From: Aestuariivirga sp.
GTDB lineage: Bacteria > Pseudomonadota > Alphaproteobacteria > Rhizobiales > Aestuariivirgaceae
NCBI GenBank assembly: GCA_035525875.1
Contig: DATLDM010000103.1
Location: 38,105-102,104, forward strand
Direction of reading: 5' to 3'
DNA length: 64,000 nt
The notes under the pieces are model-generated. The model had not been told where the DNA came from. It was given only the letters and a program-made list of their open reading frames with translations, and made no database searches. The translations under genes were made by a program, and so were the position numbers. Shown piece after piece: positions 5,001 through 59,168 of the stretch (position 1 is its first letter; each line of letters begins with the position of its first letter).

Positions 5001-6276
5001 CGCTGCATCATCCATCGATGACCGCCTCGAAAGCATTTCGATGCAGCTCACCGGCAAGCTGGAAATGACCGGCAGCCGCATTTCGGACCGCCTGGAGGAT
5101 GTTTCGGTTCTCGTTGAAAAATCCATCGACAAGTTCAACGGTGAAATGGAAAATGTCCTTCTCAGCCGCAAGGTCGCGCTTGACAGCCTGATTGACGACG
5201 CATCCAAGCGCGCCCAGGAAATCGACGCGGTGATGACCAGCTACATGACCCTCATCGAGGATTCATTGGTGACAGCCGAAGCCCGCGCCAAGGACATCAG
5301 CCGCATCATCGCCGACCAGACCAATGTTGCCGTTGGAAATCTCGAGCAGGAAATTCGCAAGATGGAGGCAAGTTCGGGCGGGCAGATCACTCAGGCCTCG
5401 CGCGTGCTGCGTGAGCAGCATGAGCGCGCCATGGCCTCCATGAATGAAATGCTCTCGTCCACAGCCAGCGACTTCCAGCAAACGGCCCAGGACATGCGCA
5501 TGACGGCCCAGCAGGTAGTCAAGGATATCGACAGCGCGCGCAGCGATCTCAAGCGGGCAATCGTTGACCTGCCGGAAGAAACCCGGACCAACGCCGATGC
5601 CATGCGCAAGGTCGTGGCCGACCAGATTGCCGCCTTGAATACGCTGGCCGATGTCGTCAAGCGCCAGACGGGCATGACCGATTTGTCCGGACCCGGCACT
5701 GGCTACGCACCGCAGCGAAGTACGAGGGATCCCAGCCCGGGAAAATCTGAGGGCGCTACGTTCCTTGCTCCGCAATCGGGAACGTCAGGCGCCCTGAAAA
5801 AAGCCATGGAGCGGCTGGAAAACAAGGGTGCTTCGACCTCGTGGCGGGATGCGGCAATAGAGAGCCCGGGCAAGCCTCAGGCCAAGAAAGCGGCGGAAGG
5901 CAACGGCGTTCCGCGCGAAGTCGAAAGCCTGACCCACGAGCTGAACCGGGTGGCGCGCGATATTGTTGACGTGCTTGAGGATGGCCTGCCCGCCGAGCTT
6001 GAGAAGCGCTATAACAAGAATGAGCGGCATGTTTATACCCAGCGCCTCTATGAGGGCCGTGGCAAGCGCCTGCAAAAGAACATCGCAACACGCTATGAAA
6101 ATGACCGGCCCACGCGCAACCAGGTGGATAGTTACGTCAAGCTCTTCGAGCGCCTGCTTGATACCGTGGCCGAAGCGCCGCAGGGCAATCAGATGGTTGA
6201 AGCCTGCCTCATGTCGGAGTCCGGCAAGATCTATGTGATGCTGGCGGAAGCCTGCGGCCGCATTTCGCCAAGCTGA
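2089..6276 (+). CDS. Large membrane-anchored coiled-coil polar scaffold, GPR/RgsE/TipN-like (apolipoprotein-like helical repeats)
   Basis: 1395 aa; two N-terminal TM segments (YYVAFVLSLAWIFGWSMLY; FALLILPIGIMWVMAYFLW); ~1000 aa of amphipathic helical repeats; C-terminal YTQRLY...VDSYVKLFERLL...SESGKIYVMLAEACGR resembles the conserved end of this family. Confidence 0.75.
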   Translation: MASNTVETRRRDKRLAERQAELRRSPSAETASLRGRPANENDPGSSLMLARLNRQPSYMAYYVAFVLSLAWIFGWSMLYSATLFNQPTDETVRSFALLILPIGIMWVMAYFLWRAQQLRQVSEVLMQSAMRLIRPQDIATEGLTSIAQAVRSEVDLLVGGVEHAVQRATVLEEIVHKEISAIERAFGGNEDRIRTLVTGLENQRSALHQASLVVGNESAPLLARLEINTQNLDSVVNSAQSTLVRFEQGLKNSTTELARTIDEVSARATVAGNEIGGQTTQMERMSGMLVGELRTFSQHLQEQIQTLSSAAGHLNAETTNFGRNVQGMESNVTHLLVQSMDQIKALTAEMSDVVQSSSGNITYHLKATSSEVASLIERSGIDAAQQIELSRGRVDQGLQNVAKDYMDKVARTHGDLKGYLDQAATQIVVGVEDATHKLSDRLSSTNTQFLTGLDQTANQLFTQLNAAGSGLAGKVEETTNRLFSEIGQKATQINLKLDETSTGVFDRLDLQANYVNSHIEETASKLYGNLDSRANALGTTIENNALRVFDAIDAQSEHVTSKLGETAATVAAKIDDATNFVHTRFEQADSKLEETAASFASRIDQATNFVHTRVDQASSSVVGQLQATGSNINDLLVTTSGTISSHLKETSDIVSRQMQDSGIALAQNIEISSGLVTDKMIGVSGEFIQKMGGARDDMFNFLSETSGQITSKMDETAGQLFARLDDTSLSITGKVTTVTENLTRKLDTSSTQLNTLLETTEERIGSQLDQASTELTALFTANTKMMSDQLDQTSTEVTNTFADTAVRVARQVQDANVVMTQRLEKTSTEVAEQLASAGNSMFTRIDSTARELGTRFDIATEILEKVTSDVSGRISGTGAKFAEILDTASSQMISDLGKASDAFSEGLGQTTLQISGRFEQETGLLVGRIDKAVKEFDSATSATNSQLSEAHRKFSKHVETANTYLADQLSTAASSIDDRLESISMQLTGKLEMTGSRISDRLEDVSVLVEKSIDKFNGEMENVLLSRKVALDSLIDDASKRAQEIDAVMTSYMTLIEDSLVTAEARAKDISRIIADQTNVAVGNLEQEIRKMEASSGGQITQASRVLREQHERAMASMNEMLSSTASDFQQTAQDMRMTAQQVVKDIDSARSDLKRAIVDLPEETRTNADAMRKVVADQIAALNTLADVVKRQTGMTDLSGPGTGYAPQRSTRDPSPGKSEGATFLAPQSGTSGALKKAMERLENKGASTSWRDAAIESPGKPQAKKAAEGNGVPREVESLTHELNRVARDIVDVLEDGLPAELEKRYNKNERHVYTQRLYEGRGKRLQKNIATRYENDRPTRNQVDSYVKLFERLLDTVAEAPQGNQMVEACLMSESGKIYVMLAEACGRISPS

Positions 6277-35703: not shown

Positions 35704-36152
35704 GGCGCGTCCGGAGGGATGACGCCTTTCTTGAATACGAAGCAGCCATAAAAGCGCCGCTCCCCCGTCTGGATCACGCAATAGGCCTTCTTGGCTTTCT
35801 CATAGAATGCAAAGCGTTCGATGGAGCCCATGGGCCAGGATTTTCCCTCGGCCTTGTCGATCTCCACCTGCACTTCCGCCTGCACCGGCGGAACCTCATT
35901 GGGCTTGCCGACAATTTCCATGCGCTCTGCCGGCTTGTCGACAAAGCTGTCGAGCGGCATGACGGAAAGTACGGCACGCGCCACGCGGGCAGCGCTCGCG
36001 TCGATGCGCAGCAATTGGCCAAGCACCGTTTCGTGTGCCACCGAATCCGCCGGAAAATTGGTATCGCAAATGATGAGCTCATCGCCATGTCCCATGGATC
36101 GCAGCGCATAGAGAACATCGGCATTGAGAAGCGGATCAATTGATTTCAGCAA
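35700..36152 (-). CDS. RbsD/FucU family sugar mutarotase/pyranase
   Basis: MLKSIDPLL, MGHGDELIICDTNFPA, ERFAFYE, TGERRFYGC. Confidence 0.92.
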   Translation of the reverse strand: MLKSIDPLLNADVLYALRSMGHGDELIICDTNFPADSVAHETVLGQLLRIDASAARVARAVLSVMPLDSFVDKPAERMEIVGKPNEVPPVQAEVQVEIDKAEGKSWPMGSIERFAFYEKAKKAYCVIQTGERRFYGCFVFKKGVIPPDAP

Positions 36153-36194
36153 GATGTTCTCCCATGTTTGTTTTAGAGCATTTGAACCATAAAT

Positions 36195-36659
36195 TTACGG
36201 CAGGTCCAATCTTATTTCATCGATCAAAACTTCCTCGAGATTGGCGCCCGGCCCTCTCCGGTCCACAACCAGAAAGCGGCTATCGGCATCAAGTACCAGA
36301 AGCGGATGATGCCAGGCATTGCGGGCATAATTGATGCCCTGGCGGCCCGTGGCCGAAAAGGCGCGGAAGCTGGCGCGGTCCGTGGGATCCCCGCACACCA
36401 GAACCAGCCACGGCCGGTCCTGCAGCGGATAAAAAATCTGGCTGCCCAGCGGGTGCCGTTCCATCAGCGTGATCGCAATGGGCCGCGGCCGCGGGTTGGC
36501 AACGACGATGCTGATGTTGACCGCCTCGGCATCGACCGAGGCCAGATCATTGAAGCGCTCGGCGAACCCCTGATTGATCGGAAAATGCTGCGCACCATCA
36601 ATTTCAATGACCTCGCCGAACGGCGCGAAGCCCGCCTTGGTCAGCGCCTGGATTTTCAT
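36195..36659 (-). CDS. allA: Ureidoglycolate lyase
   Basis: LTKAGFAPFGEVI, MERHPLGSQ, QGINYARNAWHHPL, VVDRRGPGANLEE. Confidence 0.92.
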   Translation of the reverse strand: MKIQALTKAGFAPFGEVIEIDGAQHFPINQGFAERFNDLASVDAEAVNISIVVANPRPRPIAITLMERHPLGSQIFYPLQDRPWLVLVCGDPTDRASFRAFSATGRQGINYARNAWHHPLLVLDADSRFLVVDRRGPGANLEEVLIDEIRLDLP

Positions 36660-37483
36660 TTGCCGCCGAGCTTCATGTGGCGGTTCACGTCCTTGTAGAG
36701 CAGGTAGCGGAACGGCCCCGGCCCGCCCGCGTAGCAGGCCTGCGGGCAGAAAGCGCGCAGCCACATGTAGTCGCCCGCCTCCACCTCGACCCAGTCCTGG
36801 TTGAGCCGGTAAACCGCCTTGCCCTCCAGAATATAAAGCCCATGCTCCATCACATGGGTTTCGGCGAACGGGATGACGCCCCCCGGCTGGAAAGTGACGA
36901 TGGTCACATGCATGTCATGGCGCAGGTCGTCGAGGCTGACAAACCGCGTCGTCGCCCACACGCCATTGGTGTCCGGCATCGCAATGGGCGCGATATCCTT
37001 TTCATTCGCCACGAAGGCCTCGGGAACATCGAGCCCGTCCACAAAGTCATAAGCCTTGCGGATCCAATGGAACTTGACTGATTTCCCGCTCTTGTTCCGC
37101 ACGCTCCACTTCGCCCCCGGTGGAATATACGCATAACCGCCGGGCTGCATCACATGGACCTTGCCGGAAAGCGTCAGGCTCAACTCCCCTTCCACTACAA
37201 ACAGCACACATTCCGCCTTTGCATCGGGCTCCGGTTTATCACTGCCGCCGTCCGGCTTCACGTCCATGATGTATTGCGAAAATGTTTCGGCAAATCCCGA
37301 CAGGGGCCGCGACAGCACCCAGGCCCGCGTCTTCTCCCAAAAAGGAAAGTAGCTCACCGTGATATCGCGCAGCACGCCTTTGGGGATCACCGCATAGGCT
37401 TCCGTGAACACGGCGCGATCCGTGAGCAATGCGGCTTGCGGCGGCAATCCGCCCTGGGGTGCGTAATAGGTGCGGTTGGTCAT
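36656..37483 (-). CDS. allE: (S)-ureidoglycine aminohydrolase / bifunctional allantoicase (cupin)
   Basis: RAVFTEAYAVIP, SRPLSGFAETFSQY, ETHVMEHG, WLRAFCPQACYAGG, YLLYKDVNRH. Confidence 0.93.
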   Translation of the reverse strand: MTNRTYYAPQGGLPPQAALLTDRAVFTEAYAVIPKGVLRDITVSYFPFWEKTRAWVLSRPLSGFAETFSQYIMDVKPDGGSDKPEPDAKAECVLFVVEGELSLTLSGKVHVMQPGGYAYIPPGAKWSVRNKSGKSVKFHWIRKAYDFVDGLDVPEAFVANEKDIAPIAMPDTNGVWATTRFVSLDDLRHDMHVTIVTFQPGGVIPFAETHVMEHGLYILEGKAVYRLNQDWVEVEAGDYMWLRAFCPQACYAGGPGPFRYLLYKDVNRHMKLGGK

Positions 37484-37491
37484 GTCTTGTC

Positions 37492-38778
37492 CTATCCTAT
37501 GTACACGGCGCGGAAATCATTGACGTTGGTCAGCGTCGGCCCGGTGATGATCTGGTCGCCCAGCTTCTCAAAAAATCCATGCCCGTCATTATTGGCAAGC
37601 GAGGCCCAGGGATCAATCCCCAAAGCGCGGGCCCGCGAAAGCGTATCTGGCGTAATAAAAGCCCCCGCCACTTCGCGCGCCCCATCAACCCCGTCCGTAT
37701 CAGCCGCAAGCGCCATGATCTTCTCGGCCCCGTCAAGCTTGAGCGCCAGCGCCAGGAGAAATTCCACATTGCGCCCGCCAGCCCCGCTGCCCCGCACCGT
37801 CACCGTTGTCTCACCCCCCGAGATCAAAACGCAAGGTGCCGGCAAGGGTTGCCCGAAACGCCGCGATTGCAAGGCAATGCCCGCCATCACAAAGCCCACC
37901 TCGCGCGCCTCGCCTTCAATGGAATCGCCCAGAATAAGCGGTGTGATGCCAGCCTTGCGCGCGATGGCGGCCGCCGCCTCAAGCGATTTCTGCGGCGAGG
38001 CAATGAGTTTTGTTTCGACGCCTGCAAGCCGCGGATCACCGGGTTTCGGCGTTTCATCAACGGCCTGCTTGAGATGGCGGATGACAGCGGGCGGCGCATC
38101 GATATGATACTTTGCAATAATGGCGCGGGCCTGCGCGAATGTCGTGGGATCAGCCACCGTGGGGCCGGAGCCAACCGCGGCGAGATCATCACCCGGCACA
38201 TCGGAAATCACCAGGCTCACCACCCGCGCCGGATGCGCTGCCGCCGCAAGCCTGCCGCCCTTGATGGCCGAGAGATGCTTGCGCACGCAATTCATTTCCG
38301 AAATCGGCGCGCCACTCTTAAGCAGCGCCCGGTTGACGGCGCGCTTTTCCTCCACCGAAATCCCTTCCGCCGGAAGGCTGAGCAGTGCCGAACCGCCGCC
38401 GGAAATAAGTGCAATGACGAGATCATCCTTGGTGAGCCCCTTCACCATGGCCAGCATCCGCCGCGCCCCGTTGGTGCCCGCATCATCGGGAACCGGATGG
38501 GCCGCTTCAACAATTTCAATCTGTTTGCAGGGAACGGCATGGCCATAGCGCGTGACGATCAGGCCCGAGAGCGGGCCGTTCCAGGATTTTTCAAGCACCT
38601 GCGCCATGGCCGCCGAAGCCTTGCCCGTGCCGACAACAATCGTTCGGCCCTTCGGTTTTGCCGGCAGGTTCTGCGGCACGCATTGATCCGGCATCGCCGC
38701 CGCCACTGCGGCGTCAAACATGGTCCGCAGCAATTTGCGCGTGGCATCTGGTGCCATGGCATCAACGCTCTTGGTCAC
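37492..38778 (-). CDS. Glycerate 2-kinase (MOFRL/TtuD family)
   Basis: VVGTGKASAAMA, AAHPVPD, ISGGGSAL, RKHLSAIKGG, GGETTV, GGRNVEF, TLTNVNDFR. Confidence 0.93.
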   Translation of the reverse strand: MTKSVDAMAPDATRKLLRTMFDAAVAAAMPDQCVPQNLPAKPKGRTIVVGTGKASAAMAQVLEKSWNGPLSGLIVTRYGHAVPCKQIEIVEAAHPVPDDAGTNGARRMLAMVKGLTKDDLVIALISGGGSALLSLPAEGISVEEKRAVNRALLKSGAPISEMNCVRKHLSAIKGGRLAAAAHPARVVSLVISDVPGDDLAAVGSGPTVADPTTFAQARAIIAKYHIDAPPAVIRHLKQAVDETPKPGDPRLAGVETKLIASPQKSLEAAAAIARKAGITPLILGDSIEGEAREVGFVMAGIALQSRRFGQPLPAPCVLISGGETTVTVRGSGAGGRNVEFLLALALKLDGAEKIMALAADTDGVDGAREVAGAFITPDTLSRARALGIDPWASLANNDGHGFFEKLGDQIITGPTLTNVNDFRAVYIG

Positions 38779-39554
38779 GAATTCATCAACTTCATCCAGC
38801 CCAGGCCTTCAACTGTCGTGCCCTTCGGCTTGTACTCGCAGCCAACCCAGCCGCCATAACCCAGTGAATCAATCAGCTTGAAGATATAGGGATAGTTGAT
38901 CTCGCCCGTGCCTGGTTCATGCCGCCCCGGATTGTCGGCAATCTGGATATGGCCGATGCGCGGCATGAGTTTTTTCAGCGTTGCCCCAAGCTCACCCTCC
39001 ATGCGCTGCATGTGATAAACATCATACTGGAATTTGAGATTGTCGGAGCCCACGTCATCCATGATTTCAACCGCCTCTTTCGAACGGTTTAGGAAAAATC
39101 CCGGAATGTCATGGAAGTTGATGGCCTCGGCGATGAGCAGGATGTTTTCTTTTTTGAAGGCCTTGGCCGCGAAGGCAAGGTTGGAAACCAGTGTGGTGTA
39201 GCCGGTGCGCCGCGACACATCGCTGGGCAGAATGCCCGCCAGGCAATTCACCGTGGGGCAGCCCAGCGCCTTGGCATAATCAATGGCCGTGCCGACACTG
39301 TCCTGAAACTCGCCCACCCTGTCCGGCAGGCAGCCAAGGCCGCGCTCGCCCGGCTCCCAGTTTCCCGCCGGAAGGTTGAACAGAACCTGCTTCAAATTGT
39401 TCTTCTGCAGAAGCTCAGCCACCTGCTCCTTGGGATAGGCATAGGGCCCCACATACTCCACTGCGGCAAAGCCCGCCTTTGCCGCCGCCGGAAAGCGCTC
39501 GAGGAAATCATGCTCGGGAAACAGCATGGAAAGATTGGCGCTGAATTTTGGCAT
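38775..39554 (-). CDS. hyi: Hydroxypyruvate isomerase
   Basis: MPKFSANLSMLF, LFNLPAGNW, EAINFHDIPG, DVYHMQ, HIQIADNPGRHEPGTGEINY, GCEY. Confidence 0.93.
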   Translation of the reverse strand: MPKFSANLSMLFPEHDFLERFPAAAKAGFAAVEYVGPYAYPKEQVAELLQKNNLKQVLFNLPAGNWEPGERGLGCLPDRVGEFQDSVGTAIDYAKALGCPTVNCLAGILPSDVSRRTGYTTLVSNLAFAAKAFKKENILLIAEAINFHDIPGFFLNRSKEAVEIMDDVGSDNLKFQYDVYHMQRMEGELGATLKKLMPRIGHIQIADNPGRHEPGTGEINYPYIFKLIDSLGYGGWVGCEYKPKGTTVEGLGWMKLMNS

Positions 39555-39646
39555 CAGGAAATCTCCGAAGTCGAATGGTGCAGGTGCGCCCGAAAAAGCC
39601 CTGACATCATCGATATAGCTTCCAAGGCAACACCTGTCGATTCCCC

Positions 39647-39729
39647 CTAAACCGGGAAGGTCCTATGCCAATGCCGGGCGATATCAACGCGCCGGGCGAT
39701 CCAGACCTTGTCATGGGATTGCACATAAT
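39647..39729 (-). pseudogene. Displaced puuE 3' end (attR-like remnant)
   Basis: Minus-strand translation YVQSHDKVWIARRVDIARHWHRTFPV* parallels the current puuE end YVQSHDKVWIARRIDIARHWYENFPG*. Confidence 0.85.
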
Positions 39730-39900
39730 AGTGCCACCAGCTTCAGATACCTTAGTTCCAGCCGACAGTCGGCCTTCATACCCTCATGCGCAACGACGCA
39801 ACAGCACTGGCCCGCCGCTTCGTCGAGTTCCCAAGGCGTTAAGATTCTTGACTGAATCGCGTAGGCACCCCTTTCTCTGCCAAAATCGCCAAATCGGGCA

Positions 39901-39936
39901 TTGCAAATACTGTAGCCTATGAGCTACAATAGCTCA
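39901..39936 (+). promoter_or_regulatory. Island promoter with overlapping palindromic operators
   Basis: TTGCAA (39901-39906) - N18 - TACAAT (39925-39930); TGTAGC-N6-GCTACA at 39911-39928 and TGAGCTA-N3-TAGCTCA at 39920-39936. Confidence 0.6.
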
Positions 39937-39944
39937 CACAGCAA

Positions 39945-40542
39945 GTGGATTTAATTGTGATCAAACTCAATCCTCAGAAAATCGAAGGAAGATGGAAATC
40001 CGGCATTGCTTTGGACTTTCATACGACCAGCAGTACACCAATTGGCTACAATGAATTCGGGCACATGCAATTTGATACTGTAAGGCCCGAAATTGCTGAA
40101 CTACTTTATCAGCTCAAATCTCGGCAGAATCTAGCAGTGGCGCCACAAATCATTGAGGCGGCTGCAGCATTCCTCAGTACACCGATCAAAGTTTGACCTA
40201 ATAGTACCGGTACCGCCCTCGGCTGCGCGCGCAATTCAACCCGTTCTTGTCTTAGCAAATGGCATTGGCGCAGCGATCAGCGTGCCTGTCGTCAATTGTG
40301 TCACCACCACGCGAGCAACCGCACAGCTAAAGAACATAACCGAACCTGAAAAAAGAAAAGAACTAGTTGAGGGGCTCTACGTAATTGATGCCAGTAAAAC
40401 CGTTGGCAAAAGGATTCTGCTATTCGATGACCTATTTAGGTCGGGCACAACTATGAACGAGATTACAGACGTGTTACTGGCTCAAGGTCAAACGACCAGC
40501 GTAAGCGCTCTCACAATAACAAAGACAAGGAGCAACAAATGA
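39945..40542 (+). pseudogene. ComF-like phosphoribosyltransferase, split by a frameshift near 40170-40196
   Basis: ORF 39945-40196 (IALDFHT...ELLYQLK) continues in the +1 frame as KFDLIVPVPPS...QLK...ILLFDDLFRSGTT (PRPP-binding loop)...TKTRS. Confidence 0.85.
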
Positions 40543-41408
40543 ACACCGTTTTTATAGGCGGTTCACGAAATATTTCGCGATTAACCGCTCAGGTCAGGGA
40601 ACGTTTGAATACTGTTATTGAGAAAGGTCATCAAGTCATCGTCGGAGACGCTAACGGTGCCGACAAGGCAGTACAAAAACTTTTGATGGAAGCCGCCTAC
40701 GACAAAGTGACTGTTTTCTGCTCTGGGAACCATCCTAGAAACAATATTGGTCACTGGAATACTCGAAATGTTACGCCACCAAAAGGTGTTCGAGGGTTTG
40801 AGTTTTATGCAGCCAAAGACCGCGAGATGGCAAGAGAGGCCGATTTTGGACTAATGATTTGGGATAGCAAAAGTGCAGGTACAGTTTTAAATGTTTTGCG
40901 TTTGGTACGTAGGGGCAAGATTGCCGTCCTCATAAATGTACCCGATAAGTCAACTACTACAGTCAAGACGGAAACAAACTGGCAAGATTTTTTGGCAAAA
41001 TGTAGTCCATCGCTGAGAGCCGATATTAAGGAGCGAGCAACGAAGGACGAATGGAAATTTTTGACTGCCGACATGCAAGCAAACTTGTTTGAAACTCATG
41101 ATCTATCAATCTTGGGTACAAATAAAGACCCGTCAACTAGCTCACCAGAAGAAGAATTAGCAGTCGAAATAAATGCAGCACTGGATTCAGGGGACTCTGG
41201 CTCATTTGTCGATGCGCTTGGCAACATAGCACGCGCACGTGGCATGACCCAAGTCGCAAAGGAAACCGGTTTAGCGCGTGAAAGTTTGTACCGCTCATTA
41301 GGTAGCGGGGGCAATCCAGAATTCGCTACAGTGCTTAAGATCCTGGCTGCCTTGGGGCTACGACTAGAAGCGCGAAAGACGCGCGAAAGTCGATCCGCAA
41401 AACTCTGA
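40539..41408 (+). CDS. SLOG (YspA/DprA-like) domain fused to a C-terminal HI1420-like addiction-antidote HTH
   Basis: N-terminus VFIGGSR...IVGDANGADKAVQ...KDREMAREADFGLMIWDSKSAGT; C-terminus ALGNIARARGMTQVAKETGLARESLYRSLGSGGNPEFATVLKILAALGLRL; ATGA-type overlap with the PRTase stop. Confidence 0.8.
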   Translation: MNTVFIGGSRNISRLTAQVRERLNTVIEKGHQVIVGDANGADKAVQKLLMEAAYDKVTVFCSGNHPRNNIGHWNTRNVTPPKGVRGFEFYAAKDREMAREADFGLMIWDSKSAGTVLNVLRLVRRGKIAVLINVPDKSTTTVKTETNWQDFLAKCSPSLRADIKERATKDEWKFLTADMQANLFETHDLSILGTNKDPSTSSPEEELAVEINAALDSGDSGSFVDALGNIARARGMTQVAKETGLARESLYRSLGSGGNPEFATVLKILAALGLRLEARKTRESRSAKL

Positions 41409-41452
41409 AATGAATCCAAAATTGCGGAATCTCGGCTTTAAGCAAGCTTCCG

Positions 41453-42346
41453 CTAGCCGGGAAAATTCTCGTACCAATGCCGGGCGATATCAATGCGCCG
41501 GGCGATCCAGACCTTGTCATGGGATTGCACATAATCGAGGAATTTCGCCAGCCCCTGTGCGCGGCCGGGGCGGCCGGCAAGGCGGCAATGCAGCCCTATC
41601 GACATCATTTTTGGCGAGCCGCGCTTTCCTTCCTCATACAGGCAATCGAAGGAGTCCTTCAGATACTGGTAGAAATGCTCGCCCGTATTGAAGCCCTGCG
41701 GCATGGCAAAGCGCATGTCATTGGCATCCAACGTATAGGGAATGACCAGATGCTTCTCCACCCAATAGGGCAGCTCATCCGCATAGGAATCCGATGAATA
41801 AAGAAAGCCGCCCTCATGCCTGATAAGGCGCTGGGTGTTCATCGAGCAGCGCCCCGTGTACCAGCCCAGCGGGCGCTCGCCGGTCACCTCCTTATGGATG
41901 CGGATGGCATCCTGGATGTGCCGCCACTCTTCGTCTTCCGGCATATCCTTGTAGTCAATCCACTTGAGGCCATGGCTGGCAACTTCCCAGCCCGCCTCGA
42001 TCATGGCGCGCGTCTGCTCCGGCGAGCGCTGCAGGGCGGTGGCCACGCCATAAATCGTCAGCGGAATCTTGCGCCCCGTGAACAGGCGCCACAGCCGCCA
42101 GAAACCAGCCCGCGCCCCATATTCATAAACCGATTCCATGTTCCAGTTGCGCTGCCCCGGCCAGGCAACCGCCCCGACGGTTTCAGAGAGAAAAGCTTCC
42201 GAGGCCGCATCGCCATGGAGAATGTTGTTCTCGCCGCCCTCTTCGTAGTTCAGCACGAACTGCACGGCTATGCGCGCTCCGTCCGGCCATTTCGGGTCCG
42301 GAATGGCTAAGGCGTAGCCCTTCAGGTCACGCGGATAATCGGTCAT
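41453..42346 (-). CDS. puuE: Allantoinase PuuE (polysaccharide deacetylase fold)
   Basis: YPRDLKGY, QFVLNYEEGGEN, ESVYEYGARAGFWR, WEVASHGLKW, YTLDANDMRF, GLHCRLAGRPGR. Confidence 0.96.
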   Translation of the reverse strand: MTDYPRDLKGYALAIPDPKWPDGARIAVQFVLNYEEGGENNILHGDAASEAFLSETVGAVAWPGQRNWNMESVYEYGARAGFWRLWRLFTGRKIPLTIYGVATALQRSPEQTRAMIEAGWEVASHGLKWIDYKDMPEDEEWRHIQDAIRIHKEVTGERPLGWYTGRCSMNTQRLIRHEGGFLYSSDSYADELPYWVEKHLVIPYTLDANDMRFAMPQGFNTGEHFYQYLKDSFDCLYEEGKRGSPKMMSIGLHCRLAGRPGRAQGLAKFLDYVQSHDKVWIARRIDIARHWYENFPG

Positions 42347-43619
42347 GAACTTTTTCTCCCGCCACATAGGTAGCACGAATGGCCCTGTCATCGCCCAGTA
42401 TCATCAGGGCGAACAGCATGTCCTCCAGCGATTGCGACAGCTCCTGCCGCGCCGCCAGAACCGGCGTCGCCCGCTGGTCCAGCACCACGATATCCGCGTA
42501 TTTGCCCGTCTCCAGCGCCCCGATTTCATGATCAAGCCGCAGGCGCTCCGCATTGCCACGCGTGGCCATCCGGAAGAGTTCCAGCGCCGCTGGCTTGTAG
42601 CCCGTGAGCATCTGAACCTTGTAGGCCTCGCCAAGGGTTGCCAGCATGGAATACGTGGTGCCGCCGCCCACATCGGTTGCCAGCGCAACGGGAACGGGCC
42701 GTTCCTTCTTGCCCAAATGCTTCATCGCCATCAACCCGGAACCCAGAAAATTATTCGACGTGGGGCAATGGGCGATGGTCGCCCCCGCCTCATGCAGCCG
42801 CTGGCATTCGTTCTCCGACAAATGAACTCCATGGGCAAATATGCCGTGATCATTCACCAGTCCGAAGCGCTCGTACACCGCTGTGTAATCCCGGTCATTA
42901 GGAAACAGCGACTTGATCCAGGCAATTTCGCCCGGGCTTTCCGAAAGATGCGTCTGCATCAGGGCATCGGGATAGGATTTGAGAAGCTCGCCAGAAACCT
43001 TTAACTGCGCCTCGGTTGAGGTAATCGCAAAGCGCGGCGAAATGGCATAGCGCAAACGCCCGTTGCCATGCCACGTTTGATAAAGCGCCTCGGAATCCTT
43101 GGCCCCGGTTGTCGCATCATCATGCACTGCCGGCAACGCATTGCGGTCCATCATCGTCTTGCCGGTCACCAGCGCCATCCCGCGCAACTGCGCTTCGCCA
43201 AACAACGCATCGGCACAGGTCTTGTGGACCGAGCAGAAGGCCATGGCTGCCGTCGTGCCATTTGCAAACAGGCTTTGCAAGAAAGTCTTGGCATTCACCC
43301 TGGCGTAGTCGGCATCGGCATAGCGCGCCTCTTCCGGAAAGGTAAAGCGGGTCAGCCAGTCCAACAAATCCTTGCCTGGGGCCGCGAGCATGCGAAGCTG
43401 GGGGAAATGAATATGCGCGTCAATGAAACCCGCCATGACGATATTGTCGCCATAATCATCCGTTGCAAGGCCCTGGAAATTTCGCGGCAGCAGCGTGAGC
43501 GGCCCGCTCCACAAAATTGTTCCGTCATCGCCAATGACAACTCCGCCTTTGCTTTCATGGGTGACCTCATGATGCGTCTTGCCGAAATTCAGGGTTTGCC
43601 CGCGAACAAGTTTTGTCAT
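42327..43619 (-). CDS. guaD: Guanine deaminase
   Basis: GFIDAHIHFPQ, LLDWLTRFTFPEE, YAISPRFA, QTHLSES, HCPTSNNFLGSG, ATDVGGG. Confidence 0.95.
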   Translation of the reverse strand: MTKLVRGQTLNFGKTHHEVTHESKGGVVIGDDGTILWSGPLTLLPRNFQGLATDDYGDNIVMAGFIDAHIHFPQLRMLAAPGKDLLDWLTRFTFPEEARYADADYARVNAKTFLQSLFANGTTAAMAFCSVHKTCADALFGEAQLRGMALVTGKTMMDRNALPAVHDDATTGAKDSEALYQTWHGNGRLRYAISPRFAITSTEAQLKVSGELLKSYPDALMQTHLSESPGEIAWIKSLFPNDRDYTAVYERFGLVNDHGIFAHGVHLSENECQRLHEAGATIAHCPTSNNFLGSGLMAMKHLGKKERPVPVALATDVGGGTTYSMLATLGEAYKVQMLTGYKPAALELFRMATRGNAERLRLDHEIGALETGKYADIVVLDQRATPVLAARQELSQSLEDMLFALMILGDDRAIRATYVAGEKVHDRLSA

Positions 43620-44113
43620 GGGGCGACGCGGTCCTCGATGCGGAAGCGGAAGATGCGGCACACCTGGTCCAGCGCCATGGCGAACTCGTCCTCCTTGGAA
43701 TGATTCACCCGCTCGGCGAAACTCGAGAGGATTTGCTGCTTGGTGGCCCCCTTCACCGCAAAGATAAAGGGAAAATCAAACTTGGATTTATAAAGCTCGT
43801 TGAGATGGGTGAAGCGCGCAAACTCTTCGGCAGTCAGCGCGCCCAAACCCGCTTGCGCCTGCTCATGGGCAGAATCATCGGTAAGCTTTGCCTTGCTCGC
43901 CAGATCGGGATGCGCCCGGATCAAGGCCAACTGCGCCGTTTCCGATGCGGAATGAACCGCCTCGTGAAAAGCCCTGATCATGGATTCCCGCGACACAAAG
44001 GGCCTGTCGCCCGCTGCATTGCGCGCCACCCAGGGCGAATGCTCCGCCACATCGCCAAAGGTTTTTTCAAATTCCGTGGAACTTAGCGCGTTCACCTGCT
44101 GAATTGTTTTCAT
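43616..44113 (-). CDS. uraD: OHCU decarboxylase
   Basis: FGDVAEHSPWVA, LIRAHPDLA, EQAQAGL, YKSKFDFPFIFAVKG, RIFRFRI; ATGA overlap with the puuD stop. Confidence 0.93.
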   Translation of the reverse strand: MKTIQQVNALSSTEFEKTFGDVAEHSPWVARNAAGDRPFVSRESMIRAFHEAVHSASETAQLALIRAHPDLASKAKLTDDSAHEQAQAGLGALTAEEFARFTHLNELYKSKFDFPFIFAVKGATKQQILSSFAERVNHSKEDEFAMALDQVCRIFRFRIEDRVAP

Positions 44114-46188
44114 TGCGTGTTTATCCATGCCCCCAGCTTCGCCCGTTCTTCGGCCATCATGCCCGTCTTGTTGCCAAGCGGCATGGCCTTGTTCTTCACC
44201 GCCTGCATTTCAATCTGCTGCGCATAGCGCTTCAATTCGTCCAGTGTTTCCAGCGCAATTCCCTTCGGCGCCGTCTTGATCGTGGCATCGCTTGGCGTTT
44301 GCGCATGGCAGGAAGTGCAGCGCGTCTTGACGATTATCAGCGCCTCTTCATCCCCGACGGTGCCGGAATAAGTTGGAGTTGCCGCCGGTTCCGTGAACCA
44401 CAGGGCCGCGGCCAGCGCCCCGCTGATGATCGGAATGGTCCAGGCAATTTGCGCAATTGGGTCACCCACTTCAAGGCGGACAAGAAAGTGGCGCAGCGCC
44501 GCACCGCCGACAACAATCAGGCCAACCAATATCCATGCATGCATATGCTCGGTGATCATCGGATAGTGGTTGCTGATCATCATCAGGAGAACCGGCAGCG
44601 TGAGATAGGTGTTGTGCAGCGAGCGCTGCTTGCCCGTGATGCCAAAGCTTGGATCGGGGGCTTCGCCGCGCAGCAGCGCCTGGGTGGTTTTCTTCTGGTT
44701 CGGAATGATCACCATGAAAACATTGGCCGCCATGATCGTGCCGATGAAGGAACCTACATGGATCAGCGCCCCGCGCCCCGAAAACACCTGGGTAAAGCCA
44801 TAGGCCGCAGCGAGGATAAGCAGGGCCACGCAGAAGGCGAGAAGCTCCGGCTTCCGCACGAGGGCCGAGCGGCACATCAGGTCATAGATGATCCAGCCCG
44901 CGACAAGGCTTGCAACGGATATACCGATGGCCTGCCATGGCGTAAGCACCAGCACATCCTGGGAAATCAGATAGGTACTGGCATTGAGATAATACTGCAC
45001 GATGAGCAGCAGGAAACCCGTGGCCCAGGTGAGATAAGCCTCCCATTTGAACCAGATGAGATCACCGGGCAGCTGGGCCGGAGCCACCAGATATTTCTGC
45101 ACATTGTAAAAGCCACCGCCGTGAACTTCCCAGGCTTCTCCCGAAACACCGGCTGGCAGGCCTTCCCGCTTGCGCAGGGAAAAATCCAGCGCCACAAAAT
45201 AGAAGCTCGTGCCGATCCAGGCGATGCCGGCAATCATGTGGCCCCAGCGCAGCAGCAGGTTCCACCAGTCTTCATCGAGCGGACCGGCACCCGTCAGCCA
45301 GAAGGCGAGGCCCAACGCCAGAAATATGACCGGGAGGGTCCAGGCAATTTTGTTCAACGGATCGCCTACTTCATGGCGCACCAGGAAATGCCGCAGCGCC
45401 ACCCCGCCCACAATGATGAGCCCTGCAAGAAGCCACGCCTGCGGATGATCGGTGAGCATCGCATAATGGTTTGAAACCATCATCACCAGCACCGGCAGGG
45501 TCAGATAGGTATTATGCAAGGAGCGTTGCTTGCCGGTTGCGCCAAAGGCGGGATCGGGCGTTTCGCCGCGGATCAGCGCCACGGTAATCTTGCGCTGGTT
45601 GGGAATGATCACCGCGAACACATTGGCCGCCATCAAGGTGCCGATGAATATGCCGATATGGATGAAAGCCCCGCGGCCGGAATAGACTTGGGTGTAGCCA
45701 TAGGAGGCTGCCATGATCAGTACGAAAACCAGGCCAGCCAAGAGCTGCGGTTGAGACACCGCAAACCGGCGGCACAGAAAATCATAGGCGATCCAGCCCG
45801 CCGCAAGGCTGCCCAGCGAGATCGAAATCGCCTGCCAAGGCAGCAGGGATAACACAGCCGGATCAATCAGATAGGACCCAGCGTTAACGTAATACTGTAA
45901 GCAGAGAAGCAGAAATCCCGTGACCCAGGTGAGATACGCTTCCCACTTGAACCAGATCAGGTCTTCGGGGAGTTTGGGCGGCGCGCTCAGGTATTTGCGG
46001 ACGTTATAAAAGCCGCCGCCGTGAATTTCCCACGCCTCGCCCGAAACGCCTTCCGGCAGGCCCGCCGGTTTCTTCAAGGAAAAGTCCAGCGCCACGAAAT
46101 AGAACGACGTGCCAATCCACGCGATGCCGGCAATCATGTGCCCCCAGCGAGCAAGCAAATTCAGCCATTCTATTACAAACGGATCCAT
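44110..46188 (-). CDS. puuD: Urate hydroxylase/oxidase PuuD with a tandemly duplicated membrane (DUF989) domain and one C-terminal cytochrome c
   Basis: RWGHMIAGIAWIGTSFYFVALDFSL, WFKWEAYLTW, GKQRSLHNTYLTLPVL and SNHY each occur twice, 300 aa apart; a single CTSCH heme motif; lies within the purine cluster. Confidence 0.9.
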   Translation of the reverse strand: MDPFVIEWLNLLARWGHMIAGIAWIGTSFYFVALDFSLKKPAGLPEGVSGEAWEIHGGGFYNVRKYLSAPPKLPEDLIWFKWEAYLTWVTGFLLLCLQYYVNAGSYLIDPAVLSLLPWQAISISLGSLAAGWIAYDFLCRRFAVSQPQLLAGLVFVLIMAASYGYTQVYSGRGAFIHIGIFIGTLMAANVFAVIIPNQRKITVALIRGETPDPAFGATGKQRSLHNTYLTLPVLVMMVSNHYAMLTDHPQAWLLAGLIIVGGVALRHFLVRHEVGDPLNKIAWTLPVIFLALGLAFWLTGAGPLDEDWWNLLLRWGHMIAGIAWIGTSFYFVALDFSLRKREGLPAGVSGEAWEVHGGGFYNVQKYLVAPAQLPGDLIWFKWEAYLTWATGFLLLIVQYYLNASTYLISQDVLVLTPWQAIGISVASLVAGWIIYDLMCRSALVRKPELLAFCVALLILAAAYGFTQVFSGRGALIHVGSFIGTIMAANVFMVIIPNQKKTTQALLRGEAPDPSFGITGKQRSLHNTYLTLPVLLMMISNHYPMITEHMHAWILVGLIVVGGAALRHFLVRLEVGDPIAQIAWTIPIISGALAAALWFTEPAATPTYSGTVGDEEALIIVKTRCTSCHAQTPSDATIKTAPKGIALETLDELKRYAQQIEMQAVKNKAMPLGNKTGMMAEERAKLGAWINTQ
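44392..46188 (-). repeat. Intragenic tandem duplication, 900-bp unit (boundaries approximate)
   Basis: The TGG-GGN codons of RWG are at 46146-46141 and 45246-45241; copies differ at synonymous positions. Confidence 0.9.
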
Positions 46189-46197
46189 CAAGGCTCC

Positions 46198-56066: not shown

Positions 56067-57005
56067 CTATTTTCGCACATCGAAAATCCGTGGAAGCCGT
56101 TGCTTGGCAAGCTCCAGAAACGCCCCCGCCGCCGTTTTCCGGTCAAGCCCCGGGCGATGCACGAGGGTAACCCGGCTGGGGGCCAGCTTGCGGTCAGAAA
56201 GCGGTATGAAAACCAGACTTTTTTCGGCAACGTCCCGCTCAATGCCAAACAGCGTTTGAAAGGCAATGCAGCCGCCATCCCGCGCCAGGGCCGCTATCAC
56301 CCGCAAGGAATTGCATTCAAACAGGCGGTCCCGCCGCACCGTTCGCGCCCCCAGGGCCCGGTCCAGGATGTGGCGGATGCTGAGTTCGCGCGCCGGCCAG
56401 GCAACCGGGTATTCCAGGCATTGCGCCAAAGTTAGGGATTTCGATTTGGCGAGCGGATGGGTGGGCGCCATGGTCGCCCCCAAGGCAATGACTCGCTCGA
56501 ACTCAACCGTCAAGCCGTCAAGCGCCGAGGGATTGAAGGCCACGCCCACATCGGCTTCACGCTCACGCACCAGTTCCGTCACCGTGTCGGAACCGGCAAC
56601 CGTGATGGACGCCTGCACGCCGGGGAATTTCCGTGAGAAGGCGATCAGCAAATCAGGCAAAAACGTGATCGAAAGGCTTTCCACCACCGCGATGTTCACC
56701 CGCCCGCGCGTAATGCCCTTCAAACGGGCCAGCAGATCAATCGTGCCTTCATGGGTCTGGTTCGCCGCTTGCAGGCCGCGCAGCAGCTCAACCCCCGCTT
56801 CGGTCAGGGCAAGGCTGCGCGTGTGGCGCTCAAACAGGGCAATTCCCAATTGCGCTTCAAGAAGCCCGACCTGCCGGCTGATGGCCGAGGCCGCCACGTT
56901 GAGCTGGCGCGAAGCGGCCCGCACCGAACCAAGTGTGGCCACCGCAACAAAGTGACGGTAGCCCGTGGCAAGATGTGAATCCGATAAAAGCACAGCAGGG
57001 AACAT
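56067..57005 (-). CDS. LysR family transcriptional regulator
   Basis: HFVAVATLGSVRAASRQLNVAASAISRQV...LFERH...LTEAG HTH. True start at ATG 57005; the 511-aa ORF-track version overlaps hydantoinase A. Confidence 0.92.
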   Translation of the reverse strand: MFPAVLLSDSHLATGYRHFVAVATLGSVRAASRQLNVAASAISRQVGLLEAQLGIALFERHTRSLALTEAGVELLRGLQAANQTHEGTIDLLARLKGITRGRVNIAVVESLSITFLPDLLIAFSRKFPGVQASITVAGSDTVTELVREREADVGVAFNPSALDGLTVEFERVIALGATMAPTHPLAKSKSLTLAQCLEYPVAWPARELSIRHILDRALGARTVRRDRLFECNSLRVIAALARDGGCIAFQTLFGIERDVAEKSLVFIPLSDRKLAPSRVTLVHRPGLDRKTAAGAFLELAKQRLPRIFDVRK

Positions 57006-57089
57006 TGCGGCCACTGTTCTGGCCCTGTCAACCCAGCCATGTTCGAAGGCCCTAGGCTTTGTGTGCGCGCAATAGTAGGTATCTCGGCC

Positions 57090-59168
57090 ATGAGCAAAGC
57101 CATCAAACTCGCCGCCGATATTGGCGGCACCTTCACCGATATTGTCCTTGAAGCAGGAGCCAAGCGCTGGAGCGGCAAGGTTCTGACCACGACACAGGCG
57201 CCGGAGCTTGGTGTCATCGAGGGCATCGGTCTTGTCCTCGAACAATCCGGGATAAAACCGGCCGACATCGGCGTATTCATTCACGGCACCACCCTTGCCA
57301 CCAATGCGCTTATCGAGCGCAAGGGTGCCAAAACCGCCTTCATCACTACCAAGGGCTTCCGCGATATTCTCGAGCAGGGCTATGAAAAGCGCTTCGATCA
57401 CTATGACCTGATGATTGACCGCTCGGTGCCGCTGGTGCCACGGACCCTGCGCTTCACGGTTGAGGAGCGCCTGTCCGCCGATGGCGACGTTCTGCTGCCG
57501 CTCGATGAATCCGCCTTGCAAAGTCTGGCGCAGCAGTTGCGCGACGAAAATGTGAAGGCCGTGGCCATCGGCTTTCTCCATGCCTATGCCCATGATGGCC
57601 ACGAGCGCCGGGTGCGCGAAATCCTTTCCGCTGCTTTGCCCAAGGACGTAACCATCTGCATCTCCAGCGAAGTGGCGCCGGAATTCCGCGAGTTCGAGCG
57701 TTTTTCGACGGTTGTGGCCAACGCCTATGTGCGGCCGCTCATGGCGGGTTACCTACACCGCCTGCGCGACCAGTTGCGCGGTATGAAAATGGATTGCCCA
57801 CTCTTCCTCATGATGTCCGGCGGCGGACTCACCACCTTGGAAACAGCGGCGCGCTTCCCTATCCGCCTGGTTGAATCGGGCCCGGCAGGCGGCGCCATCC
57901 TTGCTTCCGAAATTGCTGCCGAATGCGCCCTGCCCGAAGTCGTCTCCTTCGACATGGGTGGCACCACCGCCAAGATTTGCCTGCTCACCAATGGCGAACC
58001 CGAGCGCGCCCGCAAGTTTGAAATCGCCCGCGCCTACCGCGACATGAAGGGCTCCGGCATTCCAGTCCGCATCCCAGTCATTGAAATGGTGGAGATCGGC
58101 GCCGGAGGAGGCTCCATTGCCCGCGTCGACAAATTGAACCGTATTACCGTGGGACCCGACAGTGCCGGCTCAACCCCCGGCCCCGTCTGCTATGGCCGCG
58201 GCGGCACCGAACCCGCCGTCACCGACGCCAATCTGGCGCTGGGCAAAATCGATCCCGCCTATTTTGCCGGCGGCAAGATCAAGCTTGATGAAGCCAGCGC
58301 CAAGGCCGCCTTACAAAAGGCCATTGGCAATCCATTGGGCCTCAAGGATTTCTGGCCGGCGGCGGGCGTCACTGAAATCGTCGAGGAAAACATGGCCAAT
58401 GCGGCGCGCGTCCATGCCATCGAGCGCGGCCGCGACATCGCCGCCTGCACCATGATTGCCTTCGGCGGCGGCGCTCCGCTGCATGCCTGCCGGCTTGCCG
58501 AAAAAGTCGGCGTGAAAACCATCATCGTGCCCATGGGGGCGGGCGTTGGCTCTGCCATCGGCTTCCTCCGCGCCCCCATCGCCTATGAAGTCACGCGCAG
58601 CGCCGCGGTCTCGCTTGATGCCTTCAATGCAAAAACCGTGAACACCCTGCTGCACCACATGACAAACGATGCCCGCGCCGTGGTGGAGCCCGCGCTCGGC
58701 AAAACCAAGGCCACGGTGCAGATCATCGCCGACTGCCGCTATGTCGGCCAGGGCCATGAAATCCGAGTAATGGTTCCAGTGAAGACACTAAGTGATGCCG
58801 ACGGCAAAAAGCTCAAGGCTGCGTTCGAGGCCCAATATGAACAGGTTTATGGGCTTCGCATTCCCAATCAGGAGGCAGAAGCCATCACCTGGTCGGTCAC
58901 CGTTTCGTCAATTGCAAAGAAGCCAAAGCGGGCCGCGAAAACCTCCGCTAAATCCACGCCAAAGCCCAGAAGCAAGCGGCTGATCTACGATCCCGCCCTG
59001 GGCAAACAAGTCATGGTGCCCGTCTATTGGCGTTTCGACATGAAGCCCGGGGCCACATTCAAAGGCCCGGCAATTATCGCCGAGGATGAAACCTCAACTA
59101 TCGTGGGCGCCAATTTCAAAGCGAAGATCAACAGCCTGGGCTACATCATTCTGGAGCAATCGAAATGA
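57090..59168 (+). CDS. Hydantoinase/oxoprolinase subunit A
   Basis: DIGGTFTD, HGTTLATNAL, ESGPAGG, DMGGTTAK, GAGGGSIA, GPDSAGSTPGP, FGGGAPLH. Confidence 0.95.
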   Translation: MSKAIKLAADIGGTFTDIVLEAGAKRWSGKVLTTTQAPELGVIEGIGLVLEQSGIKPADIGVFIHGTTLATNALIERKGAKTAFITTKGFRDILEQGYEKRFDHYDLMIDRSVPLVPRTLRFTVEERLSADGDVLLPLDESALQSLAQQLRDENVKAVAIGFLHAYAHDGHERRVREILSAALPKDVTICISSEVAPEFREFERFSTVVANAYVRPLMAGYLHRLRDQLRGMKMDCPLFLMMSGGGLTTLETAARFPIRLVESGPAGGAILASEIAAECALPEVVSFDMGGTTAKICLLTNGEPERARKFEIARAYRDMKGSGIPVRIPVIEMVEIGAGGGSIARVDKLNRITVGPDSAGSTPGPVCYGRGGTEPAVTDANLALGKIDPAYFAGGKIKLDEASAKAALQKAIGNPLGLKDFWPAAGVTEIVEENMANAARVHAIERGRDIAACTMIAFGGGAPLHACRLAEKVGVKTIIVPMGAGVGSAIGFLRAPIAYEVTRSAAVSLDAFNAKTVNTLLHHMTNDARAVVEPALGKTKATVQIIADCRYVGQGHEIRVMVPVKTLSDADGKKLKAAFEAQYEQVYGLRIPNQEAEAITWSVTVSSIAKKPKRAAKTSAKSTPKPRSKRLIYDPALGKQVMVPVYWRFDMKPGATFKGPAIIAEDETSTIVGANFKAKINSLGYIILEQSK

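Follow-up and report, generated by a model that had tools for sequence, protein, structure and literature searches.

A searchable recombination scar at the 3' end of puuE in Aestuariivirga sp. points to homology-driven entry of a putative toxin-antitoxin cassette

Introduction

Genomic islands and cis-mobilizable elements (CIMEs) enter bacterial chromosomes by means of tyrosine recombinases that act at the 3' ends of genes, usually tRNA or tmRNA genes, and such elements are bounded by attL and attR sites. Homology-facilitated illegitimate recombination (HFIR) has been described for Streptococcus pneumoniae, Acinetobacter baylyi, and Pseudomonas stutzeri. This article concerns a 64,000-nt stretch of the genome of an Aestuariivirga sp. 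(referred to as the window; all coordinates are positions in it) in which a small two-gene cassette, flanked by direct repeats, lies at the 3' end of puuE, the gene for the allantoinase PuuE. A preliminary description of the locus took the repeats to be attL and attR of site-specific integration. The comparisons set out below point instead to integration by homology of a fragment of a related chromosome, which probably was circularized.

Several described systems provide a frame for this locus. When linear DNA with one homologous end was introduced into E. coli by conjugation, partly degraded molecules mostly re-circularized and integrated by a single crossover, and 109-950 bp of the homologous locus were duplicated in the integrants (PMC3240628). 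Rhs and CdiA proteins undergo C-terminal displacement, and effector-immunity modules of type VI secretion systems (T6SS) have been displaced sequentially in Vibrio cholerae, for which HFIR was proposed (PMC5361080). In Pseudomonas aeruginosa, core-genome defence hotspots (cDHS) are without mobile-element genes, and their transfer via flanking homology was proposed (PMC10250203). As for the cargo, ShosTA and PsyrTA are toxin-antitoxin (TA) and anti-phage systems (PMC11961720, PMC12961424). Canonical ShosT is a 424-aa protein made of a hydrolase and a phosphoribosyltransferase (PRTase), and canonical ShosA consists of a SAM and a DprA domain (PMC11961720).

An insertion at the 3' end of puuE

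The two copies of the 62-nt direct repeat are identical at 61 positions, the sole mismatch being C39688 versus T41494 (Table 1). A weaker similarity reaches 86 nt (39644-39729 versus 41450-41535, 86%). All remaining repeats in the 7 kb around the locus are at most 32 nt long and at most 80% identical; thus, the 62-nt repeat is far beyond chance. The two copies are separated by 1,744 nt that have a GC content of 43-51% versus 55-64% in the flanks. Only a PRTase pseudogene and a ShosA-like gene are encoded there, and both are transcribed in the opposite direction to the puuE-hyi operon that they interrupt. One copy of the repeat is inside the active puuE and the other is inside a second, displaced puuE 3' end located 92 nt before hyi, the hydroxypyruvate isomerase gene. 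The preliminary description had reported the repeats, the two different puuE ends, about 1.7 kb of integrase-free DNA between the repeats, and the reversed strand of the cargo, and all of these hold, the gene ends being confirmed from the open reading frames (ORFs) and their NCBIfam scores. The active gene encodes a full-length enzyme: the TIGR03212 model scores 526.6 bits (cut-off 424.6) and covers residues 19-311 of 312, the replaced end included.

Table 1. Features of the puuE-hyi region, in window coordinates.
Feature	Position	Strand	Basis
hyi (hydroxypyruvate isomerase)	38775..39554	-	TIGR03234, 370.6 bits (cut-off 353.45)
Displaced puuE 3' end (83 nt, ends HWHRTFPV and stop); holds left repeat copy 39668-39729	39647..39729	-	
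LysR' (decayed 3' end of a LysR-family gene of probable donor origin, with TAA stop)	39730..39842	+	tblastn with the L006 LysR
Cassette promoter TTGCAA-N18-TACAAT and overlapping palindrome TGTAGC..GCTACA	39901..39931	+	
PRTase toxin gene (PsyrT/ShosT-like), pseudogene in the window	39945..40542	+	PADLOC models
ShosA-like antitoxin/regulator gene (289 aa)	40539..41408	+	Pfam, TIGR02684, fold match
Active puuE (allantoinase PuuE, 312 aa, ends HWYENFPG and stop)	41453..42391	-	ORF and NCBIfam TIGR03212
puuE tail of probable donor origin (YENFPG and stop)	41453..41494	-	Alignment of puuE 3' ends
Right repeat copy (inside active puuE)	41474..41535		Repeat search

The locus was compared in a survey that took one genome per species and comprised 80 puuE loci, all from Hyphomicrobiales and Aestuariivirga-like metagenome-assembled genomes. 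The active PuuE is 93-94% identical in amino acids to its counterparts in the five closest relatives (L001-L005). The preliminary description had predicted an empty site in which puuE has an HWHRTFPV-like end and is followed by hyi, and exactly this was found in all five: puuE ends HWH(R/S)TFP(V/A), and hyi comes directly after it, starting about 95 nt on. The displaced copy in the window, together with its spacer, is near-identical in nucleotides to these empty sites. In other words, the displaced copy is the ancestral end of the gene, and the active tail arrived with the inserted DNA. The comparison thus supports the earlier proposal of an insertion at the 3' end of puuE in which the inserted DNA supplied the C-terminus of the active protein. 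The body of puuE and both flanks are 88-93% identical to L001-L005, equally on either side of the insert.

The insert carries no sign of a transposable element. A transposon or insertion sequence (IS) with a target-site duplication was rejected because neither the insert nor the 30 large ORFs of the window encode a transposase, a repeat search found no inverted-repeat pair at the two ends of the insert, and the duplication is 62-105 nt long with copies of different lineages. There is no tRNA or tmRNA gene in the window, and Rfam gave no match in the insert region.

Origin of the insert

Two arrangements of the allantoin genes bear on the source of the insert. In type I, found in L001-L005 and underlying the window, puuE is directly followed by hyi. 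In type II, the order is puuE-LysR-gcl-hyi. For example, in L006, L009, and L013 a LysR-family gene lies immediately downstream of puuE and convergent to it, followed by gcl and hyi. The 2.8-kb gaps between puuE and hyi in these three loci were considered as possible larger islands, and this was rejected, as they contain the LysR gene and the gene for glyoxylate carboligase, which are metabolic genes rather than mobile genetic elements (MGEs). Their contents led to the identification of a LysR stub in the insert of the window (see below). The 64-kb window has no gcl. The allantoin locus is thus dimorphic within the clade when window positions 36000-46000 are compared with these three loci. L009 and the window are about 89-90% identical in the flanks, 85% in puuE, and 80% in hyi. 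As puuE and hyi of L009 fall below its flanks in identity, the whole block looks like a divergent allele.

The two types can be told apart within the active puuE. The body of the window gene is 90-93% identical to type I alleles and 82-85% identical to type II puuE, and the window hyi is 80-82% identical to type II hyi. At the 3' end, the tail is of the 'NFP' type that is seen in L006-L014 and L059. Numbered back from the end of the gene, the informative sites -19, -14, -13, and -10 are type II, and those from -30 upstream are type I. The A at the repeat mismatch is common to L009, L012, and L059, as read from the 3'-end alignment. The tail that appears to come from the donor consists of the last 20 nt and the stop codon and reaches upstream at least to the mismatch at T41494. 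Recipient-type sequence thus makes up the active copy as far as about -30, and donor-type sequence is confined to the stretch between about -41/-19 and the stop. The 20 nt between the recipient-type and donor-type parts are kept in nearly all lineages, and therefore most of the repeat identity in the window is not an att core.

At its other end, next to the displaced puuE copy, the insert holds the decayed 3' end of a LysR-family gene (LysR'). A tblastn search with the L006 LysR matched positions 39762-39839 (73% over 26 aa, E 3e-7). The window has a LysR gene of its own (56067-57602), which was ruled out as the source. Two further copies of the arrangement, L081 and L082, preserve an older, less decayed state. 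In L081, LysR' keeps about 60 codons and is directly adjoined by a displaced puuE copy of 105 nt. The two puuE copies of L081 are 82-86% identical over 103-105 nt and have no conserved core. The joint between puuE' and LysR' falls within an imperfect microhomology patch, GGAAT..TTT.CAG, that is found in both parent genes, and the joint looks illegitimate. Judged against L081, the sharp repeat boundary of the window (ATTATG) is the product of a later deletion of ~72 nt across this joint.

The insert is thus composed of an NFP-type puuE tail, the two-gene cassette, and LysR'. The tail and the stub are the two flanks of one type II intergenic site. It follows that the insert is an uninterrupted piece taken from a donor chromosome and does not have ends of its own as an element would.

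The two-gene cassette

The first gene of the cassette encodes a PRTase and is broken in the window into ORFs 39945-40196 and 40153-40542, with GTG, not ATG, as its start codon. The frame is lost through a 2-nt deletion after position 40178 (CAGT--ACAC versus CAGTTCACAC), and the two missing bases are present in L081 and in reads of the metagenomes X2 (TC) and X3 (AC). With the partner gene intact, the frameshift at 40178/40179 could reflect a real inactivation of the toxin or an assembly error. The intact PRTase of L081 is 199 aa long and matches the PADLOC models PsyrT (3e-17) and ShosT (3e-6); the fragment in the window matches the same models at 7e-17 and 3e-5. Of the PsyrT profile, the toxin (195-199 aa) matches just the C-terminal part, at positions 545-687 of 689.

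The start of the second gene overlaps the PRTase stop codon. Its product is predicted to begin with a DprA/SLOG-like Rossmann domain and to end with an 'antidote' domain that has a helix-turn-helix (HTH) of the HI1420 type, with residues 176-201 forming a disordered linker between the two. The protein matches PF21716 (2e-24) and TIGR02684, and weakly PF02481 (DNA_processg_A, E 0.003). PADLOC returned no model for it at E<=1 and hence no ShosA or PsyrA match. A sequence search of the PDB likewise gave nothing significant for this protein and only weak matches to generic phosphoribosyltransferases for the PRTase. An AlphaFold2 model of the protein (pLDDT 83) found as its best PDB match E. coli ShosA (8zva, E 6e-5, TM 0.38), followed by DprA structures.

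A promoter (39901-39930) with an overlapping palindrome precedes the cassette. This motif is kept upstream of the cassette in all contexts examined (L081, L083, L084, L091, and L093), and the palindrome is a probable autoregulatory operator of the HTH domain.

How does the cassette relate to ShosTA and PsyrTA? As in those systems, a putative PRTase toxin is paired and translationally overlaps with a partner, here a possibly DprA-like one, whose best structural match is ShosA. However, the toxin is without the N-terminal hydrolase domain of ShosT and without the RecQ helicase of PsyrT, and the partner consists of a short DprA/SLOG-like domain, with no SAM domain, fused to an HI1420-type HTH. 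By its predicted domains, the cassette can be described as a minimal ShosTA/PsyrTA-like variant with a fused HTH rather than as a member of either system by architecture. By analogy, it is a putative TA or anti-phage system.

Parallel scars at other loci

The cassette is widespread. The ShosA-like protein has 2,557 homologues, in Rhizobium, Bradyrhizobium, Xanthomonas, Halomonas, and others, which are named only 'addiction module antidote protein'. The two genes were strictly linked in about 90 loci. They are found at dozens of unrelated positions, for example between ppx and rnd and beside rpsD, an aminotransferase gene, or a TetR gene, and no mobility genes were seen near these other cassette loci. 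Conserved termini, inverted repeats, and an attC-like structure were looked for, and only the promoter/operator proved to be conserved. Flanking direct repeats are absent at 50 of the 53 cassette loci tested; only L081/L082 and L105 have them. Many public contigs with the ShosA-like gene are only 1.7-2.0 kb long, probably as a result of assembly breaks at strain-variable flanks.

L105 (2258-7579) shows the same kind of scar between other genes. The order there is a full protease gene A, the PRTase gene, the shosA-like gene, B', A', a GST gene, and a full gene B. B' is the last 300 nt of an epimerase gene and matches the full copy, which lies 1.6 kb from it, at 94% identity; A' is the last 216 nt of gene A, also 94% identical. 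B' and A' meet at a CCA(A) microhomology. By its architecture, L105 is an independent case of an X-cassette-Y'-X' arrangement, in which puuE-cassette-LysR'-puuE'-hyi can likewise be cast.

A second parallel comes from another clade of puuE loci with a different cargo. In L071 (10900-11640), puuE is followed by higB, higA, and a 19-codon remnant of an HI1420-type antidote gene, which adjoins a 42-nt copy of the puuE end and a terminator. L077 has the same higBA genes and a disrupted antidote gene, with no duplication. Directly 3' of puuE, L068 and L069 carry a Gp49-like killer and an HI1420 antidote, and L072 carries an antidote fragment. TA genes thus turn over directly 3' of puuE in this second Hyphomicrobiales clade (L068, L069, L071, L072, and L077). 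In L105 and L071, as in the window, donor versions of chromosomal genes border the insert on its two sides, and one of these genes is homologous to the target.

A model of integration and its alternatives

How did the cassette come to lie between two ends of puuE? The favoured reading, which is given a probability of about one half, is that a circularized fragment of a related chromosome, carrying the cassette, integrated at the end of puuE by one homologous crossover. The donor would have been a related Hyphomicrobiales lineage of type II with convergent puuE and LysR genes and a ShosTA-like cassette between them, and the recipient a type I genome with puuE directly followed by hyi. The fragment would have begun about 105 nt ahead of the puuE stop, spanned the cassette, and finished about 60 codons ahead of the LysR stop, and illegitimate joining of its ends within a short microhomology patch would have closed it into a circle. 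This circle would then have integrated by one RecA-type, Campbell-like crossover between its 105-nt piece of puuE and the puuE of the recipient, which would thereby have acquired ~1.9 kb. The expected outcome is an intact puuE with the last codons of the donor, the cassette with the LysR stub, and the displaced end of the recipient puuE before hyi, with no integrase or att site involved. Later, in the lineage of the window, ~72 nt would have been lost across the joint of puuE' and LysR', and the toxin gene would have gained its 2-nt frameshift. The two puuE copies of the window may be near-identical through gene conversion, or because the crossover fell close to the tail.

The scars of the window, L105, and L071 each need exactly one illegitimate joint (Y' to X') and one homologous exchange. 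The simplest route to them is a circularized fragment. The same pair of events, one homologous exchange and one illegitimate joint at microhomology, accounts for Campbell integration and HFIR, neither of which needs a dedicated recombinase. Furthermore, the homologous segment is duplicated in each case, over 109-950 bp in the experiments, 105 nt in L081, and 216 nt in L105. The puuE case differs in being natural, fixed, and deduced from sequence, and its homologous segment is short and diverged. Its intermediate is a proposed one, and delivery may have been by transformation, gene transfer agent, or transduction.

Several points weigh against this model. Among 80 puuE loci and 95 cassette loci, an intact donor arrangement of LysR, cassette, and puuE was not found. 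A circular form did not appear in a sample of about half of the Logan contigs of X1, the source run of the window, to which sample the cargo unitig does not belong, and a candidate from X3 has another explanation: the joint in that contig (41552 to 39762, which 'goes back 1791'), considered as an excised circle or tandem form, is reproduced by a 105-nt displaced copy abutting LysR' as in L081. A crossover would be inefficient when confined to about 105 nt of diverged sequence, and the model also has to account for a non-replicating circle that arises within the recipient or is brought to it. Upstream of -105, where informative sites are few, a few type II-like states are present in the active puuE of L081, and these would fit the mirror-image event described next slightly better. 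Finally, the window and L081 are as far apart in the cargo (92% identical) as in the flanks (about 93%), which makes the event an old one and leaves recency no guide to its direction.

The main rival, itself rated unlikely, is a mirror-image HFIR event in which the cassette was resident between puuE and LysR of a type II ancestor and a linear type I fragment came in. This fragment (the last 105 nt of puuE, the spacer, hyi, and beyond) would have recombined homologously in or beyond hyi, while its free end was joined illegitimately inside LysR, deleting most of LysR and gcl. The 'active' C-terminus would then be native and the 'displaced' copy foreign. One illegitimate joint and one homologous exchange give the same final structure in this way, and an insertion coupled to a deletion is the classic outcome of HFIR (PMC3240628; model in PMC5361080). 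The dimorphism of the locus and the scattered type II-like states in L081 also fit. However, the body of the window puuE is of type I by identity, as set out above, and the window resembles L002-L005 to the same degree on either side of the insert, two findings which modestly favour insertion into a type I genome. No imported block starts at the displaced copy, and on the hyi side, where the mirror-image event predicts one, there is no clear discontinuity in similarity to type I relatives. Between the types, identity in hyi, the proposed homologous anchor, reaches only about 80%. The mirror-image event also leaves unexplained why scars adjoin an accessory cassette in three independent cases (window/L081, L105, and L071).

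A further alternative concerns the timing of the insertion rather than its mechanism. The arrangement may be ancestral to the whole type I clade, the insert having been lost from L001-L005 by recombination between the repeats or by replacement with an empty allele. The near-equal divergence of cargo and flanks is in keeping with this, hyi places the window, L081, L001, and L002 at about equal distances from one another, and a deletion between the repeats would regenerate a seemingly pristine site. Against it, all five relatives have the HW-H-(R/S)-TFP tail and none has cassette remnants, so that the possibility raised in the preliminary description, that relatives share the arrangement as ancestral, was not borne out. 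A single gain in the ancestor of the window and L081 is also more parsimonious than several losses. The phylogeny does not decide between the two, and an ancestral insert is considered improbable.

The preliminary description had suggested that the insert is a remnant or trans-mobilized element that uses an attB site of a new kind. In this reading, the repeats are attL and attR of a site-specific element (decayed, or CIME-like and mobilized in trans), the 3' end of puuE is the target, and the replacement end was carried in attP. Direct repeats around foreign low-GC DNA at a gene 3' end, a reconstituted coding sequence, and an empty site in relatives all invite it, as does the second clade, in which TA modules sit immediately 3' of puuE and one of these has a 42-nt repeat. 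Nevertheless, the reading is very improbable now and largely refuted already. Pfam families of integrases and transposases are absent from the insert and the 30 large ORFs of the window. They are also absent from the 25 commonest of 101 Pfam families in 132 ORFs downstream of puuE in L003-L080, where single occurrences are possible. The insert carries LysR', a fragment of a neighbouring gene of the donor, the diverged repeats of L081 share no core, and the repeat boundary in the window stems from the secondary deletion. The L071 copy covers only the last 42 nt of puuE, and the exchange in the window lies upstream of about -41, so the two events share no recombination core. Moreover, 50 of the 53 cassette loci are free of flanking repeats.

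The likeness to islands at tRNA genes is therefore only superficial. As in islands and CIMEs, direct repeats surround foreign DNA at a gene 3' end, and the end of the coding sequence is rebuilt by sequence borne on the incoming DNA. The puuE insert, in contrast, has neither an integrase nor a conserved core, its repeat length varies between copies, it holds a fragment of a donor neighbour gene, and its cargo occurs elsewhere without repeats. From these comparisons, the claim of a novel attB is not supported.

One speculative alternative gives the cassette itself a role. The DprA-like protein might bind single-stranded DNA, load RecA, and promote homologous integration of its own circles, making the cassette a recombinase-less 'homology-hitchhiking' unit, with the PRTase being ComF-like. 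This would account for the two independent occurrences of the X-cassette-Y'-X' scar (window/L081 and L105) among 53 loci and for the presence of the cassette at dozens of unrelated intergenic sites without MGE genes. The higBA module shows the same kind of scar, which weakens the idea, and its chances are considered very slim. An assembly artefact, the last possibility that the preliminary description had raised, can be set aside: the window comes from a soil metagenome and Logan unitigs break exactly at the 41-nt exact repeat, which bounds the 1825-nt unitig of the window (39700-41524), but the 62-nt repeat fits within a single read, two other runs in which the repeats have diverged independently yielded this architecture (L081 and L082), and near-identical or related cargo reads are present in four further metagenomes (X2-X5).

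Relation to displacement systems and defence hotspots

Under the favoured reading of a circularized donor fragment, the puuE locus resembles the Rhs, CdiA, and T6SS cases in that incoming DNA uses a conserved upstream segment and brings a new 3' end and downstream genes, while the old end is orphaned downstream. It differs in that only about 7 codons of a metabolic enzyme were exchanged, without functional diversification. The cargo also bears no relation to the gene that it interrupts, and no cognate immunity gene accompanies the displaced stub.

The locus likewise resembles the cDHS of P. aeruginosa, as defence or TA cargo lies between conserved core genes with no MGE genes. An ordinary double crossover, however, is scarless, whereas the scar at puuE, a displaced gene end together with a stub of a donor neighbour, records the route.

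Other features of the window

The genes around the insert all belong to purine and allantoin catabolism (guanine deaminase, OHCU decarboxylase, ureidoglycine aminohydrolase, glycerate kinase, and xanthine dehydrogenase). Positions 44110-46191 on the minus strand, downstream of the OHCU decarboxylase gene, encode a 693-aa membrane protein that is internally duplicated in tandem. Identity between the halves is about 72% in DNA, each half carries the motif WGHMIAGIAWIGTSFYFVALDFSL, and the duplication is also present in relatives. Elsewhere, a 1395-aa ORF (2089-6276, plus strand) has apolipoprotein-like amphipathic helical repeats as its sole Pfam matches.

Significance

The entry of small defence and TA cassettes that lack mobility genes into genomes is mostly inferred, and the puuE locus and its two analogues keep a readable scar of it. 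In this scar, an intact gene carries a foreign tail and is followed by the cargo, by a stub of the other neighbour of the donor, and by the displaced native gene end. As read from the sequences, it points to homology-driven integration of a small, probably circularized chromosomal fragment rather than to site-specific integration. Two things are modestly new: a recombination scar that can be searched for, documented in a natural case and two analogues, and a widespread minimal ShosTA/PsyrTA-like cassette with a fused HTH whose partner protein has no PADLOC match. The locus also carries a caution, as direct repeats at a 3' end together with a reconstituted coding sequence do not suffice to prove an att site. 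The X-cargo-Y'-X' pattern is directly searchable and could be used to gauge how often accessory genes enter genomes in this way.

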